This document shows, piece by piece, positions 105-23,575 of a stretch of 26,649 nt of DNA. Below the pieces are notes generated by a model. The model was not told the DNA's origin. It was given only the letters and a program-made list of their open reading frames with translations, and searched no databases. Every line of letters begins with the position of its first letter. Position 1 is the first letter of the stretch. The translations under genes were made by a program, and so were the position numbers. This stretch comes from a virus (Duplodnaviria; Heunggongvirae; Uroviricota; Caudoviricetes), in IMG/VR virus record IMGVR_UViG_2778261572_000013, positions 1-26,649 of that record. One strand, written 5' to 3'.

Positions 105-1157
105 TTACGGGGTAATGCCAACCGCTGCCGCCACTTTGTCGCCACTTGGCAGCGTTGCCAGAGGATTGAAACGGAGCGCCGTTTCCAGATGATCTGGTGC
201 CAGATGTGCGTAACGCATAGTCATTTTTATATCGTGGTGTCCGAGAATTTTTTGTAAGGCGAGAATGTTTCCACCCGACATCATGAAGTGCGCCGCAAAC
301 GTATGGCGCAGAACGTGTGTGAGTTGACCGCGAGGGAGCACGATAGACGTTTTTTCCATCACGGATAAAAATTGAAAATAGCAGTCTGTAAAGAAATTGA
401 ACCCATCAAGCGCCATGATCTCTTCGTAAAGCTCTTTACTGATAGGGATGCTTCTGTTTTTCTTCCCCTTCGTTCTGACAAAGGTAATTCGGTATTTGGT
501 CACCTGTGAGCGGGTAAGATTTACGGCTTCACGCCAGCGTGCACCTGTGCTTAAGCATATCTTAACTACCAGTGCCAGAATTGGGTCCTGACGTTTGCAA
601 TCAGCCAGCAATTCAACAATCTGCTCATGGGTAAGCCATGCCATCTCTTTTTCTGCGATGGTGAATTTTCGCATGTTCTCCAGTGGGTTCGGATACGACC
701 ATTCGCCCAGACGGGATAGTTCGCTAAAAACACTACTTAGATAGCTTTGCTCCAGGTTAATGGTGACCGGGCTTGCTCCTTTCTTCCATTTCTCGCTGAA
801 GTAGATCTCGCCTGTCAGGCGTTTATCTCGATAGTGGGCAAACATTTTAGAGGTGAGATCGGTTGCAAGAGGATTGCCCAGAGCGTCAACCATCAACAGC
901 AATTTGTCATAGACATGCTGCCCAGCTGTCAGAGATTTACCATGTAGTTTGAACCATAGCTCAACCACGTCTTTCAGTGTTCGACGATCCACTGATTCAC
1001 CCAGCCAGGGCTTTGCTTCGGTTTCTTCCATCGTGTGGCGCTCAAAAGCCAGAGCTTCGCCTTTGGTGGCGAATTGTTTACGCACCCGACGCCCACTACG
1101 TCCGGCGGGGTAACATTCGCAAAGCCATTTTCCTGTGGTGAGTTTTCGTACTGCCAT
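105..1157 (-). CDS. int: Tyrosine recombinase / phage integrase (P2 Int-like)
   Basis: 350-aa ORF. C-terminal HxxR...H...Y catalytic region (LTHVLRHTFAAHFMMSGGNILALQKILGHHDIKMTMRYAHL) is typical of tyrosine integrases; first gene of the prophage as in P2. Confidence 0.93.
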   Translation of the reverse strand: MAVRKLTTGKWLCECYPAGRSGRRVRKQFATKGEALAFERHTMEETEAKPWLGESVDRRTLKDVVELWFKLHGKSLTAGQHVYDKLLLMVDALGNPLATDLTSKMFAHYRDKRLTGEIYFSEKWKKGASPVTINLEQSYLSSVFSELSRLGEWSYPNPLENMRKFTIAEKEMAWLTHEQIVELLADCKRQDPILALVVKICLSTGARWREAVNLTRSQVTKYRITFVRTKGKKNRSIPISKELYEEIMALDGFNFFTDCYFQFLSVMEKTSIVLPRGQLTHVLRHTFAAHFMMSGGNILALQKILGHHDIKMTMRYAHLAPDHLETALRFNPLATLPSGDKVAAAVGITP

Positions 1158-1230
1158 AAAAAAGCCCTCATGTCAGAGGGCTAAATTTAACTGTATGTTT
1201 GACCAGTGGTCAATGTATGTAAATATTAAA

Positions 1231-3000
1231 TCATACGTCAGGGGTAATCCAGTCGACTAAAGCCTCAATACTTTCGAAATCTGCACAGATATCTGAAAGA
1301 GGTTGTGTATCTGCTTTTGTTTTGAAATCAGCCCATACTGATTCATTTTTTTCTGTAAGACCCAAATGGTTTTCTATCGAACCATTTAGCCAAATCCAAA
1401 TATTTGCATTTCTCAGTTTTGCGGCTAATGATGACAAAAATTCTCTGGCGCCGGGCTTTTGAGACATAATAGCAAATGCTTCAGCTGCGGTAGTGTTACT
1501 ACCCTTTGTAGGCAAACCGGATCCATCGAGAGTGCATTCTCCATTAGCATGCATACTTCTCAAGATTTCTTTTAGTCGTAAAATATCCTCGTCATTATGT
1601 TCTAAGAAGTTGTTCCTTATTGCACCGCGGAACGCAAAATCTAAATCAACAATTGCTTTTGTAGGTATATCCATTGAATTTAGAATTTGCATCGTTTTAG
1701 ATATACTTTCAACGGACCCTGTTTCAATTAGTGCTATTTGCATCTGACCTAATGTTTTATTTTTAACTTTGTTAAAAATAAATGGGAGCAGAGTAGTCTC
1801 TGTTTTACCTTCTGTTAGTATTACATTGTTAGCAAACAAAACTTTTGAAGACTGTGTTAATGAAAATAAATGGGTTGCTTGTGCTGGTCGTTGTTCGATT
1901 ACTTTATTGACTGCTTCTTTTAATGTTAATCTGCAATGAGTGCCACGCTGACTGTTTTTTCTGATTAACACAGTGTCTTTTGCTAAGTCAGAGGTAATCA
2001 TTTGAGATGAATGGGTAGAGAAAATTATTTGATATCCATGATGAGATAGTGTTTTTAGAGATTCTCTAATTTGTTCGATAGCAAATGGGTGAAGATATAA
2101 CTCAGGTTCATCTATTAACAGTAGAGTAGTTGTTTTAATATCATCACCGTTGGTTATATCAGCTAAATGTCTTATTAGAGCCATCTGAATCGAACGCTGT
2201 GTGCCATGACCATAAGAAGAACAGTCACGAGCAATGCCGGGAAATGAATCTTCATATACTTTTACAGTCCCTGATTTAAATATATCCTTGAAGTCAGGGA
2301 GTTCGAAGTGTAGTTTTAAACTTATCCCAGGGAAGAAATCAGCAACTTTACTACTTATTGAATCATCAATATCATTGAGGTCCGATATTCGTTTATTACC
2401 GGTTGCAGTCATTCTTCTATTAACGGCATTTAAATGGCTTAGTATCCTTTGAGTGTGCTTCTCTTCTATTTTGCAACTCAATTCTGCCAGCAACTTACCT
2501 ATTGTAGTTCCTGTTTTTGATTTTGAAGAATCATCCGCTGCATTTTCCATTGCACCTATACGTATTGGGTCTGGAAATAAAGCTTTTATCGCATTCTCAA
2601 TACCCGTTGGTGATGTCCTGAATTCGTTATTTTCTGGGTTTTTAATTAATAATCTGACGTCTTTTGCACTTTGAGCACCAACAGGCTGTTGACGTTTAAA
2701 TATCAATACCCCATCAATAATGTAGGGTGAAATTCTAGTTCTGTTTTCTTCTGTTAAAGCTGACAAAATATCTTCAGTAATACCCTTAACTGTACCTATA
2801 ACTTCTATAGGGTTATCTGGATTAGTATAATCATCAGAGGACAAAAGTTTTTTCTTAAAAAGCCATTCAATAGCATTTAAAATCGTTGACTTACCAGCAT
2901 TGTTGTAACCGATTAAAGGCGTGAATGAAGAAAAATTGATATCAATATCTTTGCAAGATCTAAAGTTTTTTATAGAAATCTTTGAAAGATGATGATTCAT
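1231..3000 (-). CDS. OLD-family ATP-dependent endonuclease (ABC-type ATPase N-terminus plus Toprim C-terminus)
   Basis: 589 aa. Walker A GYNNAGKST, signature-like HGTQRS, Walker B LLLIDEPELYLHP, H-loop FSTHS, then Toprim-like E (ILTEGKTE) and DxD (VDLDFA). Size matches P2 Old (586 aa). AT-rich relative to the phage core. No adjacent helicase gene. Confidence 0.75.
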   Translation of the reverse strand: MNHHLSKISIKNFRSCKDIDINFSSFTPLIGYNNAGKSTILNAIEWLFKKKLLSSDDYTNPDNPIEVIGTVKGITEDILSALTEENRTRISPYIIDGVLIFKRQQPVGAQSAKDVRLLIKNPENNEFRTSPTGIENAIKALFPDPIRIGAMENAADDSSKSKTGTTIGKLLAELSCKIEEKHTQRILSHLNAVNRRMTATGNKRISDLNDIDDSISSKVADFFPGISLKLHFELPDFKDIFKSGTVKVYEDSFPGIARDCSSYGHGTQRSIQMALIRHLADITNGDDIKTTTLLLIDEPELYLHPFAIEQIRESLKTLSHHGYQIIFSTHSSQMITSDLAKDTVLIRKNSQRGTHCRLTLKEAVNKVIEQRPAQATHLFSLTQSSKVLFANNVILTEGKTETTLLPFIFNKVKNKTLGQMQIALIETGSVESISKTMQILNSMDIPTKAIVDLDFAFRGAIRNNFLEHNDEDILRLKEILRSMHANGECTLDGSGLPTKGSNTTAAEAFAIMSQKPGAREFLSSLAAKLRNANIWIWLNGSIENHLGLTEKNESVWADFKTKADTQPLSDICADFESIEALVDWITPDV

Positions 3001-3043
3001 TTTAGACTCCTCCAGTAAGTATTTAAAAGTAATGTCTGCAATG

Positions 3044-3982
3044 TTATTGTATTGTTAAGATAATGCTGGCTATAATTTGAATATCCTCAATGGAACACTC
3101 AAAATCCTTACTCCCACCAGAAACAAGAATTTTGTTCTTAGGTAAACGAGTTAACTCTTTTAAAGATAACTCATTGTCAATTCCTACTAACCATTTTCCA
3201 TCTCTAATTAGGTGAAATTCTTTATCACATATGACATGTTTTTCTCCATTGCTTACAAACATCAAGCTGCTAGTTTCTTGCTTCGGAAGTAGACACCGAT
3301 CCATGGATAAAAAACCTGACTCGACAAGCACGCCATTGACCAAATTGAACTTATTTAAAATTACAGTGTTTTCTTCTTGTGAACTATTTGGTGTTTCGAT
3401 TCCTGTAACTAGCCAGGCGAGATCCGCTTTGGTTTCTAATGCGCATTTAATCACCCAATCCGCAGGGAAAGAATCTCGCATGTATCGTGTGGCTAATGTG
3501 CTTTTTGAAATACCAAGGTGGTCGGCTAAGGCTTGGCGGGTTTTAAACCCGTAAGCATTAACAATCCTCTCTATCGCGGCTTTTCCTCCGTTAGTAAGCT
3601 CAATGTGATTCTCAATGCGGCGCTTAAAGGATGATTGATGAGCGTTGCTGTTAAACCCCTCATGTGGGACTGTTTCATCATGTTGTTCCACATAAGGGGG
3701 GAAACTTTCTTCTGCATTGTTAGAACCAAAGGCCAGCCATTCTAGGGATGCGCCAGTTTCCATTGAACATATAACAACCCAATCAGCAGGGAAGGTATCG
3801 CGTGCATATCTATTAGCCATTGTGCTTTGTGAAATACCAAGATGCTTACAGAAGGCTTGGCGTGATTTGAAACCATAGGCCTTGAGTATCCTCTCAATGA
3901 CTTTTTGCCCTCCACGATTCTGCATGACCATAGCTTTCAGACTATCTTCAATATGGCGAAATGTGATTTTTTGAGTTGACAT
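3044..3982 (-). CDS. 186 CI-like immunity repressor with tandemly duplicated N-terminal DNA-binding domain
   Basis: 312 aa. Residues about 29-85 and 137-193 are paralogous (IERI.AYGFK.RQA..HLGIS.ST.A.RY.RD.FPADWV..C..ET.A.L.WL), resembling the phage CI repressor N-terminal domain. Divergent from the cox/cII operon, as expected for the repressor. Confidence 0.7.
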   Translation of the reverse strand: MSTQKITFRHIEDSLKAMVMQNRGGQKVIERILKAYGFKSRQAFCKHLGISQSTMANRYARDTFPADWVVICSMETGASLEWLAFGSNNAEESFPPYVEQHDETVPHEGFNSNAHQSSFKRRIENHIELTNGGKAAIERIVNAYGFKTRQALADHLGISKSTLATRYMRDSFPADWVIKCALETKADLAWLVTGIETPNSSQEENTVILNKFNLVNGVLVESGFLSMDRCLLPKQETSSLMFVSNGEKHVICDKEFHLIRDGKWLVGIDNELSLKELTRLPKNKILVSGGSKDFECSIEDIQIIASIILTIQ

Positions 3983-4069
3983 ATTCTTTATGTGAACCTA
4001 TTCTCCGTTTTGTGATGTTTTGTCACGATTAATACCGGCTCACCACAAGCCAATAGGAGATGTTGCATC
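3983..4069. promoter_or_regulatory. Divergent promoter/operator region of the immunity switch
   Basis: Lies between the leftward repressor gene and the rightward early operon; contains the direct repeat GTTTTGTGA/GTTTTGTCA and an RBS (GGAG) for the 4070 ORF. Confidence 0.5.
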
Positions 4070-4291
4070 ATGACCCCTAACATTTCAATAACTCTGAATA
4101 CGCCACACGTCACAATTGAGCGTTATAGCGAACTTACTGGTCTTTCTATCGACACCATCAACGATATGCTGGCTGATGGTCGTATCCCTCGCCATCGCCT
4201 TCGGAAAGACAAGAAAAGAGAAAAGGTAATGATCAACCTTGCTGCTCTTACCGTTGATGCACTTACTGATTGCAATGTTGTATTCAACTAG
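4070..4291 (+). CDS. Small DNA-binding protein, Cox/Apl-like (excisionase/switch regulator) candidate
   Basis: 73-aa basic protein, first gene of the rightward early operon, with an HTH-like segment ([25 protein letters not shown]). Assigned by position and size only. Confidence 0.5.
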
Positions 4292-4323
4292 TTCCATTTT
4301 GGGATGCATCAGGAGTGTCGACT

Positions 4324-4833
4324 ATGTTTGATTACCAAGTTTCCAAACATCCACATTTTGATGAAGCCTGTCGTGCATTTGCATTGCGCCACAACTTGGT
4401 GCAACTGGCAGAACGTGCAGGTATGAATGTGCAGATTCTGCGGAACAAGCTGAATCCAGCTCAACCTCATTTATTAACCGCACCAGAAATTTGGTTGCTT
4501 ACTGATCTGACAGAAGACTCAACACTGGTAGATGGTTTTCTGGCACAGATTCACTGCCTGCCATGTGTTCCGATTAATGAGGTGGCAAAAGAGAAACTGC
4601 CGCATTACGTCATGAGTGCAACAGCAGAGATCGGGCGTGTAGCTGCAGGCGCGGTATCTGGCGATGTAAAAACCAGTGCAGGCCGTCGTGATGCTATCAG
4701 CAGCATTAACTCTGTAACACGACTGATGGCGTTGGCTGCTGTTTCATTGCAGGCCCGTTTACAGGCTAACCCTGCGATGGCGAGTGCAGTTGATACCGTG
4801 ACTGGCCTCGGTGCTTCATTTGGTTTGCTGTGA
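4324..4833 (+). CDS. Phage regulatory protein CII-like (186 CII/CP76 family)
   Basis: 169 aa starting at MFDYQV with an AGGAG RBS 5 nt upstream; position after the apl-like gene as in 186. Family assignment is from memory of the CP76-type sequence, not verified. Confidence 0.55.
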
Positions 4834-10078: not shown

Positions 10079-10098
10079 TACTGTAAATATAAACAGTG
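10079..10098. promoter_or_regulatory. LexA (SOS) box
   Basis: taCTGTaaatataaACAGtg matches the CTGT-N8-ACAG consensus, with promoter-like hexamers just upstream, about 45 bp before the 10140 ORF. Confidence 0.7.
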
Positions 10099-10842: not shown

Positions 10843-11058
10843 ATGTCAAGCATCGCCGCATTTAGCCTGGGTAACCCAGTTGAACGTCTGGCAAGGGTTC
10901 TTAAAGAGAACCAGGACAAACTCAATCTTAGTAAAGATGGTTTTGTGTCCGTAGACTTGTCTAACAAAAGAGCAATGGATGCCATCAAGGCACAGATGGA
11001 TAAGCTTGAAGGCATCAAAACGAGCACTGTAAAAGAGAAAACTAATAGAACCAGATAA
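10843..11058 (+). CDS. Hypothetical small soluble protein (cassette 1, gene 1)
   Basis: 71 aa with strong RBS (AAGGGGGAG). AT-rich. Stop overlaps the next start (TAATG). Confidence 0.55.
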   Translation: MSSIAAFSLGNPVERLARVLKENQDKLNLSKDGFVSVDLSNKRAMDAIKAQMDKLEGIKTSTVKEKTNRTR

Positions 11059-11900
11059 TGGCAACATTACTTTTAGCAGTGATTTTGGTTAGTGGTTTTA
11101 TTTATGTAAACCTATCACTTTCAACAAGATACCGATATAAGCGTTCCAACGGCTGGGACGCTTATTTTTTTGTGGCTGCCTGGGGTATCGTTTTTTTTCT
11201 CCTTGGCGGTTTTTTCACCTTTATTTTGAACGTCAGCGGAGGGTTTCGTTGGCTGGCTAATGCCTTGAATCTAACACCTGACAGTTTTAATGGCATGTTG
11301 TCTTCATCGAAAGACAAACTTCAAAGAATAAATGAAATCAAACAGATAGCATGGGTTATGATTTCAATTGTCCTCGCTGCGATTTCAGGTTTTGGAAATA
11401 AGTTACGCACATCACGTGGAGATCGTCGCTGGGATGCCTTAGCTAAAGCTGTGGGTAATAACGCTTTCGAATCATTACTCATGGAAGCGTCCGCAAGACA
11501 GTTTCCGATCATAGCAACTCTGTCGTCTCGCAAAATCTATGTTGGTCTTGTTACTTGTCCGGCGTTAGAAAACGGGCTTTCAGAGCACCTTGAACTTCTC
11601 CCGATGTTAAGCGGATATCGGGATAAAGATGATCTAACGATTAGTATCACGACTAACTATCACCAACATTATCTTGATAGTGGTGTGATAAGTGGAATGT
11701 CTCGGCTTAATATCGAAGATTTCCGTGTGCTCATACCAAAAGATGAGGTTGAAACAATTTCGTTTTTTGATACTGAGACATATAACAAATTTAAAGAAAA
11801 TGAAGCCAGGGATAGAAAGAGCTGTCGAAAGATTGGTAGTAAAAGTGCATCTTCGCACAGCAAGCGTGCAGCAGATACTGAGTCAAATGATCGTGCATGA
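11058..11900 (+). CDS. Hypothetical membrane protein (cassette 1, gene 2)
   Basis: 280 aa; three hydrophobic segments in the first about 115 residues, then a hydrophilic domain of about 165 aa. Translationally coupled to the 71-aa gene. Confidence 0.55.
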   Translation: MATLLLAVILVSGFIYVNLSLSTRYRYKRSNGWDAYFFVAAWGIVFFLLGGFFTFILNVSGGFRWLANALNLTPDSFNGMLSSSKDKLQRINEIKQIAWVMISIVLAAISGFGNKLRTSRGDRRWDALAKAVGNNAFESLLMEASARQFPIIATLSSRKIYVGLVTCPALENGLSEHLELLPMLSGYRDKDDLTISITTNYHQHYLDSGVISGMSRLNIEDFRVLIPKDEVETISFFDTETYNKFKENEARDRKSCRKIGSKSASSHSKRAADTESNDRA

Positions 11901-12231: not shown

Positions 12232-12696
12232 GTGGAAAAAGAGCTAAATCAAAATCAGATCAGTGAAGTGCAGATTAATGTCTGCCACAAAATCTATGAA
12301 TTTTTTAAGTCTTTAGATGGAGCATCCGATTTCAAAATCGAAACTGAAACCAGTGGCGATGATGGCGATCTAAGTTTTTCTTTTGAGCAATCAAAGACTA
12401 TTTTTAAAGTGGAAGTGCTTTCTACAGAATACTTTAAATTAATTAGAATTATAAATGCATTTGACTTTACCGCAACAAAGTCTATTGAGGAAATGAATTT
12501 ATTAGGCAGGGCAAATCAATTTAATGCATATGCAGTGGGCATTAAGGCTCTGGTTCATACTAAAAAAGTAGGTTATGTTGATTTCTGCGTAGATATATTA
12601 TCTTCTAAAGGTGACGTTAATTCTAGCGATCTTAATTTATCCTTGGTCTTACTAAGAAGTGCGCCAATGAATTTTCTGGCAGTAACTAAGGACTAG
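12232..12696 (+). CDS. Hypothetical acidic soluble protein (cassette 2, gene 1)
   Basis: 154-aa ORF from a GTG start, AT-rich, no recognised motif; followed 10 bp later by the next gene. Confidence 0.45.
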   Translation: MEKELNQNQISEVQINVCHKIYEFFKSLDGASDFKIETETSGDDGDLSFSFEQSKTIFKVEVLSTEYFKLIRIINAFDFTATKSIEEMNLLGRANQFNAYAVGIKALVHTKKVGYVDFCVDILSSKGDVNSSDLNLSLVLLRSAPMNFLAVTKD

Positions 12697-23485: not shown

Positions 23486-23575
23486 TTCTTCGCAATGGAG
23501 AACTTTTAAGTTTGCAAAATGGAATAATGCGGTATCATTATTGTGAATTTAGCAAAAATGGGGAGAACTCGAAAA

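Follow-up and report, generated by a model that had tools for sequence, protein, structure and literature searches.

The window, a stretch of 26,649 nucleotides (nt) of viral DNA (IMG/VR record IMGVR_UViG_2778261572_000013, positions 1 to 26,649), is a 186/P2-like prophage of Escherichia coli. Its gene cI, on the minus strand at positions 3044-3982, encodes a 312-amino acid (aa) repressor with two DNA-binding domains (DBDs). We put at roughly 70% the probability that this CI is the immunity repressor of a 186-like prophage, with two functional DBDs per subunit that read an array of TGTGA(A/T) half-sites over the lytic promoter pR, and that it originated by fusion of a first-domain (D1) module to a cI gene of the second-domain (D2) type. 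Best supported in this reading are the role as immunity repressor of the prophage and two helix-turn-helix (HTH) domains that are both probably functional DNA binders, because their recognition helices are nearly identical to those of CIs in which each one is the sole DBD.

Domain organization of the tandem repressor

An earlier note, made from the sequence, had singled out the open reading frame (ORF) at 3044-3982 as a repressor gene with an internally duplicated DBD of the CI type. The gene, the parts of its product and the two copies of a DNA repeat within it are as follows:

3044..3982, minus strand: cI, 186-type immunity repressor with tandem DBD, 312 aa (ORF; two PF07022 and one PF16452; annotated 'phage repressor protein CI' in identical E. 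coli prophages)
3917..3982, minus strand: N-terminal extension, residues 1-22, specific to the D1 lineage and also present in D1-only CIs; the -35 hexamer of pR and half-site O1 fall within its first ~10 codons
3719..3916, minus strand: DBD 1 (D1), residues 23-88, recognition helix QSTMANRY (Pfam; helices 25-85 in the AlphaFold2 (AF2) model; D1 clade; ratio of nonsynonymous to synonymous differences per site, pN/pS, 0.11)
3590..3718, minus strand: linker between the DBDs, residues 89-131, acidic/polar and predicted to be disordered, of varying length and sequence (predicted local distance difference test, pLDDT; alignment of relatives)
3392..3589, minus strand: DBD 2 (D2), residues 132-197, recognition helix KSTLATRY (best Pfam stretch 135-197; aligns to the N-terminal domain (NTD) of 186 CI in 2fjr; pN/pS 0.19)
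3047..3355, minus strand: C-terminal oligomerisation domain (CTD), residues 210-312, with the fold of the 186 CI CTD (PF16452, E 1.4e-22; 2fkd, E 2e-12; Foldseek 2fkd_A)
3432..3589, no strand assigned: DNA repeat copy A, within D2 (direct-repeat search)
3756..3913, no strand assigned: DNA repeat copy B, within D1, 70% identical to copy A at an offset of 324 (direct-repeat search)

The domain search that the note had recommended returned two Phage_CI_repr domains and one Phage_CI_C domain: PF07022 matches the protein in two stretches (E 1.5e-58), and PF16452 matches residues 210-308 (E 1.4e-22). When residues 1-109 were compared with residues 110-312 by BLASTP, residues 9-86 paired with 121-194 at 55% identity (E 7e-31), a likeness far above chance expectation, so that the alignment upholds the claimed paralogy of the two DBDs. 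The repeat is also visible in the DNA, where 3432-3589 and 3756-3913 are 70% identical with a start-to-start spacing of 324 nt, and both 15-mers that had been quoted for it, at 3453 and 3777, were located.

The alignment to 186 CI (2fjr) spans residues 136-308 of the window CI, namely D2 plus the CTD, with an E-value of 2.2e-28. Pfam, BLASTP and this alignment agree with the note that the protein is a CI-type repressor and that phage 186 CI has a single DBD. The one-DBD layout of 186-type CIs (NTD-linker-CTD, about 190 aa) is not matched by the window CI, with its 312 aa and two DBDs. By both types of domain and by its context the window protein is a member of the 186 CI family, from which it departs in DBD number and operator types.

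Predicted structure

The AF2 monomer model, computed from an alignment of 41 sequences, contains two confidently predicted helical DBDs (residues 25-85 and 133-193) and a confident β-rich CTD (residues 206-311), while linker residues 90-128 have a pLDDT below 50. The mean pLDDT is 78, and the predicted template modeling score (pTM) is 0.40; therefore, the model has no fixed arrangement between the domains. Foldseek matches the model to 186 CI (2fjr_A) with an E-value of 1.6e-16 and 35% identity over the alignment, and the CTD superposes on 2fkd_A with a template modeling (TM) score of 0.89 and a root-mean-square deviation of 1.3 Å. The model thus joins the two DBDs by a flexible linker of ~40 residues, shows nothing of a packed pseudo-dimer and preserves the oligomerisation module.

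The earlier note had expected a covalently tandem DBD to act as a single-chain pseudo-dimer and had named structure prediction as a check. The expectation is not supported: AF2 gave no D1-D2 interface, the linker is of low confidence, the pTM is low, and the 186-type oligomerisation domain is retained. Since the CTD is retained in full, the covalent linkage of the DBDs is not a substitute for dimerisation.

Two DBD lineages and a mosaic origin

D1 is 83-89% identical to the sole DBD of CIs of 207-209 aa, which share its N-terminal extension of about 22-24 residues, and D2 is 75-85% identical to the sole DBD of CIs of 185-199 aa (84-85% for proteins P0033 and P0036), whereas the identity between D1 and D2 is about 55-63%. 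Clustering of 325 DBDs yields two main clades, one with 85 second domains and 135 sole domains and the other, that of D1, with 73 first domains and 15 sole domains, beside small clades of other first domains. When the D1 of the window is compared with its D2, pS reaches saturation at 0.71 and pN is 0.24. In a set of ten tandem genes with a pS of about 0.74, the pN/pS ratio is 0.11 (D1) and 0.19 (D2), and the CTD is only 28-45% identical among tandem proteins. Given the saturated pS and these low ratios, both DBDs are old and under strong purifying selection, stronger than that on the CTD. The internal duplication of the earlier note, if taken as a recent event, is not supported, in view of the separate clades, of single-DBD relatives that stand closer to each domain than D1 stands to D2, and of the pS of 0.71.

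The gene and its surroundings are mosaic, and the closest relatives (L numbers are our labels for loci) change along the window:

154-3577: integrase gene (int), OLD nuclease gene, CTD and D2; closest to L175/L172, with a single-DBD cI, then a 589-aa OLD and int; about 78-81% DNA identity
3432-5010: D2, linker, D1, switch, apl and cII; closest to tandem phages L002/L003, with another CTD and other cargo; about 90% DNA identity
3735-4015: D1 through O3; closest to a D1-only phage; 74% DNA identity
3970-5213: switch rightward; closest to a 198-aa single-DBD phage; 92% DNA identity

The GC content is 30-36% at about 3001-3450, the part coding for the CTD, 30-40% in OLD, and 41-46% across both DBDs, a contrast that agrees with the mosaic reading. 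The whole gene had been described as AT-rich like OLD; this holds for the CTD-coding part and not for the DBDs. Likewise, the suggestion that cI arrived together with OLD stands for D2 plus the CTD, which form one block with OLD and int at about 81% DNA identity to single-DBD prophages, and fails for D1, the linker and the switch, which come from another, tandem lineage. The block of cI (D2 plus CTD), OLD and int is common to the window and L172, L173 and L175, which are Citrobacter and metagenome prophages with a one-DBD cI, at about 78-81% DNA identity, so that the defence gene travels with the 3' half of the repressor gene.

The C-terminal end of the linker looks like a fossil of the fusion. 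In many tandem CIs it reads K-F/S-P-I-E-x-x-I-N-P-N-x-GGKAAIERL, a sequence homologous to MSTSKYPSEIKINPNKGGKAAIERL at the N-terminus of the 198-aa CIs; other tandem CIs have ...H-M-D/N-F-T-x-GGK, where the Met occupies the exact start position of the 185-189-aa CIs. The window linker is of the second type, with Ile replacing Met. An internal start giving a short single-DBD isoform was considered, as Met stands at the fusion point in some relatives; with Ile at this position, we do not propose it for the window.

The two DBDs of the PsP3 CI are 51% identical mutually and 34-51% identical to those of the window, and their recognition helices differ, which suggests that the PsP3 tandem is probably an independent event. 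Other arrangements of CI-type DBDs were also observed. At L066 2375-3924 (also L154, L155, L156 and L159), two cI genes stand in series: a single-DBD cI of 189-191 aa lies beside the switch, and 50 nt past it follows a 307-aa tandem-DBD cI that has no switch of its own and whose O1 is destroyed, with a 505-aa P-loop (KAP-like) protein and the integrase also found in the window behind it. This second cI may be an anti-phage cargo repressor or an intermediate toward domain fusion. At L107 2360-3516, there are three successive CI-type DBDs: a 198-aa ORF with two DBDs and no CTD, whose stop overlaps (ATGA) the start of a normal 187-aa cI with DBD and CTD. The end of the first ORF is paralogous to the hinge that follows the DBD in the second.

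Switch region and candidate operators

The elements predicted around the start of cI, together with a related site at a distant promoter, are listed here:

3976..4004, plus strand: predicted lytic promoter pR, TTGACA at 3976-3981, 17 nt, TATTCT at 3999-4004 (promoter scan, 10/12 matches)
3962..3967, plus strand: candidate half-site O1, TGTGAT, in cI codons 5-8 (AATGTG invariant in 16 switch regions; overlapping codons without synonymous variation)
3991..3997, plus strand: candidate half-site O2, TGTGAAC, in the pR spacer (conserved as TGNGAWCC; also in D1-only and 198-aa single-DBD phages)
4011..4016, plus strand: candidate half-site O3, TGTGAT, just 3' of the pR -10 (TGTGA.GTT invariant; present in D1-only phages)
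4022..4028, plus strand: candidate inverted half-site a' (GTCACGA), at a distance from O3 that is 7-9 nt among the phages (CAC.A invariant; tentatively assigned to CI)
4040..4049, plus strand: candidate inverted half-site a'' (TCACCACAAG), with a spacing to a' of 20 nt that mirrors that of O2 and O3 (CACAAG invariant; may be an Apl or pL element instead)
23540..23548, plus strand: half-site ATTGTGAAT just 3' of the -10 of putative pB, the promoter of the ogr/B gene (sequence comparison)

The -35 of pR, a near-consensus promoter, overlaps the cI start codon (CAT at 3980-3982). When the switch regions of 16 different tandem phages are aligned, this hexamer and much of the -10 region change little or not at all. 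The invariant blocks in this alignment (AATGTG, TTG.CAT, G.GA.CC, TGTGA.GTT, CAC.A and CACAAG) are separated by variable DNA, and the O3-a' spacer varies in sequence and by 0-2 nt in length. The comparison of operator repeats with half-site spacing that the earlier note had called for thus yields O1, O2, O3, a' and a'' around pR, with a two-fold symmetric spacing of 20 bp (O2-O3), 12 bp (O3-a') and 20 bp (a'-a''). Synonymous variation among the 34 non-redundant genes of D1 type that were aligned is almost lacking in the first ~10 codons (3953-3982 in the window), where TTGACAT contains the start codon, and is free and saturated in later ones, which points to a DNA-level constraint from pR and O1.

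Comparison with single-DBD phages ties one of these elements to D1. In the D1-only phages, the corresponding positions (O2, O3, O4) are taken by three TTGTGAAC-type repeats in direct orientation. The 198-aa single-DBD phages share nearly the whole of the window region, but the palindrome GTACCCAATTGGGTAC replaces O3, so that among these elements it is O3 that co-varies with D1. Around pR, the 185-189-aa single-DBD phages, to which the window D2 is most closely related, have GTGAAC, GTGATC and GTTCAC. At putative pB, the single half-site of the window has a counterpart in Klebsiella phage 4LV2017, where TTCACAAT and ATTGTGAA flank the corresponding putative promoter; by analogy, the site would parallel the control of pB by CI in 186. 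Phage ESSI2_ev129 was set aside as a comparison phage, being of a different genus and having no comparable pB.

Several further sequences were considered as operators and rejected. TTCACAA in D1 codons I50-S51-Q52 (window 3828) resembles an FL-like operator, but these codons vary synonymously among the 34 genes, and for the plus-strand TGTGA(A/T) at 3378 and 3604 conservation was not established. In many tandem cI genes (e.g., L004, L078, L082, L142 and L169), the K-F/S-P-I-E/G codons at the linker/D2 junction carry A-type operator-like DNA, TTCCCAATTGAGA; in L082, where the encoded residues have become PIG, the palindrome CCCAATTGGG is perfect. This DNA lies about 350 bp from pR and is reminiscent of the 186 FL site inside cI. 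At the junction in the window and its nearest relatives, an A-type operator-like sequence (CCCAATTGAGA or CCCAATTGGG) is degenerate, and nothing is claimed for it.

Among the single-DBD phages, L008 and L110 combine the recognition helix STLANRY with a CCCAATTGGG-type palindrome at pR, and L084 and L175 combine STLATRY with half-sites of the GTGAAC/GATCAC type. The preference for A-type or B-type sites known from 186 CI may thus follow this single N/T difference in the helix.

Distribution of tandem CIs

In a search of 5.8 billion proteins, 42 of the best 120 clusters were tandem proteins of 290-330 aa, with hosts in E. coli, Salmonella, Klebsiella, Citrobacter, Enterobacter, Kosakonia and Edwardsiella. 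Of 5,426 complete E. coli genomes, at least 218 (about 4%) have a match to the two-DBD segment (3432-3982) over 80% or more of its length, always annotated 'phage repressor protein CI'. Tandem CIs are also carried by Klebsiella phage 4LV2017 and related Klebsiella prophage records, and more distant ones (28-45% identity) occur in Citrobacter, Pantoea and Shewanella algae. The cI of PsP3 (L178 3219-4079; NP_958086) encodes 286 aa with two PF07022 domains and one PF16452 domain. A contig scan with one genome per species gave mostly single-DBD loci and only two tandems, and IMG/VR proved a richer source of tandem loci. The survey of related prophages that the earlier note had recommended thus finds both single- and double-DBD repressors, the latter being common in gut bacteria.

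Proteins P0165, P0230, P0221 and P0243, with four to seven 'stretches', were rejected as CI arrays, as they are SUMO-like repeats, low-complexity sequences or other HTH_3 arrays. In L056 (IMG/VR), an otherwise identical copy of the window cI is truncated in the CTD (237 aa), probably by a frameshift or an assembly error.

A comparison published in 2011 recorded that the CIs of PsP3 and PhiECO3 are longer and described this as a longer C-terminal domain (PMC3448106). No description of a tandem 186-type CI was found in the open-access literature searched. The tandem CI is a widespread protein that lies in the databases under a generic name, occurs in at least two sequenced phages and is uncharacterised as far as the searchable literature goes.

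Prophage context

Positions 2900-4300 of the window are 100% identical to prophages of several complete E. coli genomes, in which the prophage is inserted between rcdA and ybjL. The genes around cI and a distant regulatory site are as follows:

105..1157, minus strand: integrase (Pfam Int_N and Phage_integrase)
1231..3000, minus strand: OLD nuclease, 3' of cI on the same strand, presumably in the lysogenic operon (PADLOC Old, E 1.4e-234, whole profile; Pfam AAA_15 and OLD-like_TOPRIM)
4070..4291, plus strand: apl/cox-like gene, first in the lytic operon (phrog_575, 'Cox-like excisionase and repressor', E 9.6e-32)
4324..4833, plus strand: cII-like gene (PF06892 Phage_CP76, E 4.4e-42; RefSeq annotation)
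10081..10096, plus strand: perfect LexA box CTGTAAATATAAACAG, 5' of a split tum-like pair (sequence match)

The gene order int-OLD-cI, pR/pL, apl-cII is the layout of 186 with OLD inserted between cI and int, and cII is followed rightward by fil, DUF5347, DUF2732, a TraR/DksA-like gene, dam and a replication endonuclease gene. As in 186-type phages, the window cI is the first leftward lysogenic gene opposite apl-cII, with the predicted pR and the conserved half-sites at its 5' end. No further CI-family match occurs in the first 9 kb of the window, the remainder of which was not searched for another repressor gene. For cII, the mechanically called ORF begins at TTG 4270, and the 169-aa RefSeq protein begins at ATG 4324, which agrees with a Pfam match from residue 28. 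The OLD protein is full-length and of the P2-Old type, and its place between cI and int, on the cI strand, is not the usual old locus of P2.

The LexA box is followed by a small ORF (phrog_698) and then by a DinI-domain ORF (10267/10339-10572), an arrangement like that of tumA/tumB in PsP3; the ORF 5' of the DinI-like gene, however, could not be aligned with PsP3 TumA and has no detectable similarity to it. CIs of the 186 type are inactivated by a LexA-controlled antirepressor, Tum, rather than by RecA-mediated cleavage. By analogy, the module suggests that the window prophage would be induced by the SOS response through a Tum-like antirepressor acting on CI. Two ORFs after the tum region lie where P2-like phages often carry cargo: one of 280 aa at 11058-11900 (phrog_3630, function unknown), apparently membrane-associated by sequence, and one of 154 aa at 12232-12696 without match in Pfam, PHROG or PADLOC.

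Proposed mode of action and alternative explanations

In the preferred reading, D1, with its own N-terminal extension, would be followed by D2 on a tether of ~40 residues and then by a 186-type CTD that forms dimers; two DBDs per subunit and a dimerising CTD would therefore make four DBDs per dimer. These flexibly tethered DBDs would meet at least four TGTGA(A/T) half-sites covering pR, with O1 (3962), O2 (3991) and O3 (4011) in one orientation and a' (4022), perhaps also a'' (4040), in the opposite one, and the related half-site at the late-activator promoter pB may be bound as well. Binding would shut off apl-cII and lytic transcription. The data show the domain content, the homologies, the selection, the mosaic origin, the gene context and the conservation of the half-sites; the pairing of each DBD with a site and the oligomeric state are points that we infer, as is induction by the Tum-like module. 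The variable O3-a' spacing (0-2 nt) and the pLDDT below 50 in the linker are in line with a flexible tether, and the tandem architecture works in real phages, namely PsP3 and Klebsiella phage 4LV2017. As for its origin, a D1 module with its promoter-proximal operators would have been placed in frame 5' of a complete D2-type cI, and the D2, CTD, OLD and int block of the window copy would later have been swapped with that of a single-DBD phage.

Several points weigh against this reading. The assignment of O1-O3, a' and a'' as operators is inferred from conservation and co-variation. As a' and a'' occur in all phages sharing the promoter-distal block of this Apl lineage, they might belong to Apl or to pL, although both are missing from phages that combine an 86%-identical Apl with another type of CI. 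The A-type and B-type operators known from 186 (at pR, pB, FL and FR) are not evident in the switch: the B-type TTCAC-N5-GTGAA (up to two mismatches) occurs 17 times in the window against 12.5 expected, with none at the switch, and was rejected as the operator of this phage as not enriched, while the window pR lacks the A-type CCCAATTGGG-like palindrome that serves as operator for the nearest D2 relatives of most tandems. The AF2 run, of a monomer without DNA, neither shows nor excludes a transient packing of D1 on D2. Finally, the window CTD is 36% identical to the 186 CTD (BLASTP); the fold match is compatible with assembly into a wheel and is no proof of it.

The single-chain pseudo-dimer can be restated in a narrower form, in which D1 and D2 of one chain read a composite operator made of O3 (D1-type) and a' (of D2-type heritage) and the CTD adds only higher-order cooperativity; a lone subunit would then replace the dimer of an ordinary repressor. 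O3 and a' are indeed adjacent, opposed and invariant, the 0-2 nt variation of their spacer suits a flexible tether, O3 tracks D1, and a' is common to the D2-type (198-aa) phages. However, the CTD dimer/wheel domain is fully retained, AF2 places no interface between D1 and D2, more than two conserved half-sites lie at pR, and a' may not be a CI site, so that we regard this form as unlikely. Possible, though doubtful, is a bispecific immunity in which D1 and D2 keep the operator specificities of two heteroimmune lineages and silence both the phage's own hybrid switch and incoming D1-only or D2-only phages, which would widen superinfection immunity. Close relatives of either DBD stand alone in the CIs of other phages, D1-type and D2-type regions are combined in the switch, and the L066-type tandem cI without a switch sits in a cargo slot behind a resident single-DBD cI. 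On the other side, the helices of D1 and of the relatives of the window D2 seem to be paired with similar TGTGA(A/T)C half-sites, and the specificities of D1 and D2 may therefore largely overlap. In its full form, which we hold with equal reserve, the tandem CI would be a natural fusion of the DBDs of two heteroimmune lineages on one wheel, with 28 DBDs per 14-mer, conferring immunity to both parental types and with the L066-type copy as cargo. If this were true, the accretion of DBDs at the 5' end of cI, at least two independent times and up to three DBDs (L107), would be a general route to new or broader immunity in P2/186-like phages.

The presence of a LexA-controlled tum-like pair and the strong conservation of D1, which would fit a protein-protein role, could also mean that one DBD is a regulatory module, either a decoy or docking site for a Tum-like antirepressor or an auto-inhibitory mask of the other DBD. 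But the HTH is complete in both D1 and D2, each with a recognition helix that hardly differs from that of sole-DBD repressors, O3 co-varies with D1, and the N-terminal codons bearing O1 travel with D1, which makes this explanation improbable. Least of all do we expect that CI serves chiefly to control the OLD gene beside it and is not the immunity repressor of the prophage. The earlier note had left a defence-system role open, and adjacency, the shared strand and the similarly low GC of OLD and the CTD-coding part speak for it. Yet cI occupies the canonical position facing apl-cII with pR overlapping its start, the 9 kb searched hold no other CI-family match, OLD also follows cI genes with a single DBD, and tandem cI genes also occur beside unrelated cargo or none. 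Moreover, the CI protein has no match in PADLOC, and we take the full-length PADLOC Old match to be a stand-alone one-gene system. We therefore do not retain that role.

Implications and comparison with known repressors

The two-DBD family is a natural experiment that sets DBD number and tethering against operator architecture, cooperativity and immunity specificity on the wheel, and it informs how immunity types evolve by domain accretion and recombination. Annotation and the prediction of prophage immunity are affected, as tandem proteins are all labelled 'repressor protein CI'. In the cI-OLD-int block, the C-terminal half of the repressor travels with defence cargo, which bears on the spread of defence genes among P2-like prophages. 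The weight of the finding would rise if the DBDs confer dual immunity or a new loading of DNA on the CI wheel.

Phage 186 CI, whose seven dimers form a wheel that wraps DNA and brings it into loops, is the textbook alternative to lambda CI. The window CI resembles it (2FJR, 2FKD) in its domain families, in the CTD fold, in the position of its gene opposite apl-cII and in a pR beside the cI start, as well as in a candidate CI-type half-site at the late-activator promoter and a putative LexA-controlled tum-like module. The operator elements of the window are 20-21 bp apart, about two helical turns, and the operators of 186 are likewise two turns apart (PMC3675496). In contrast to 186, the window CI has two DBDs per subunit with a disordered linker of ~40 residues between them, the -35 of its pR overlaps the cI start codon, and its pR carries TGTGA-type half-sites, mostly as direct repeats, where 186 has three A-type inverted repeats. 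In P2, direct repeats of the C repressor about two turns apart flank the -10 of the early promoter (PMC1904268, PMC2995052), as the candidate O2 and O3 flank the pR -10 of the window 20 bp apart, but P2 C is a single-domain protein of ~99 aa that cannot be aligned with CI (PMC3448106), and it has no homology to the window protein.

Among the tandem CIs, that of 4LV2017 (ARB15674, 313 aa) has the same architecture and the same switch region, with D1 95% and D2 79% identical to those of the window, whereas its CTD is 28% identical and its downstream cargo is different. The CI of PsP3 shares the two PF07022 domains and PF16452 but differs in DBDs that are 34-51% identical to those of the window. 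Engineered single-chain repressors, such as the single-chain 434 repressor, read two half-sites, also non-identical ones, with two linked HTHs. In these, the linkage replaces dimerisation, whereas the window CI keeps its oligomerisation domain and would have four DBDs per dimer. The monomeric repressor of cluster-A mycobacteriophages reads an asymmetric site with two domains (PMC9283540) and, like the window CI, has two DNA-contacting domains in one chain; it differs in pairing an HTH with a non-HTH domain, in being monomeric and in belonging to an unrelated family.

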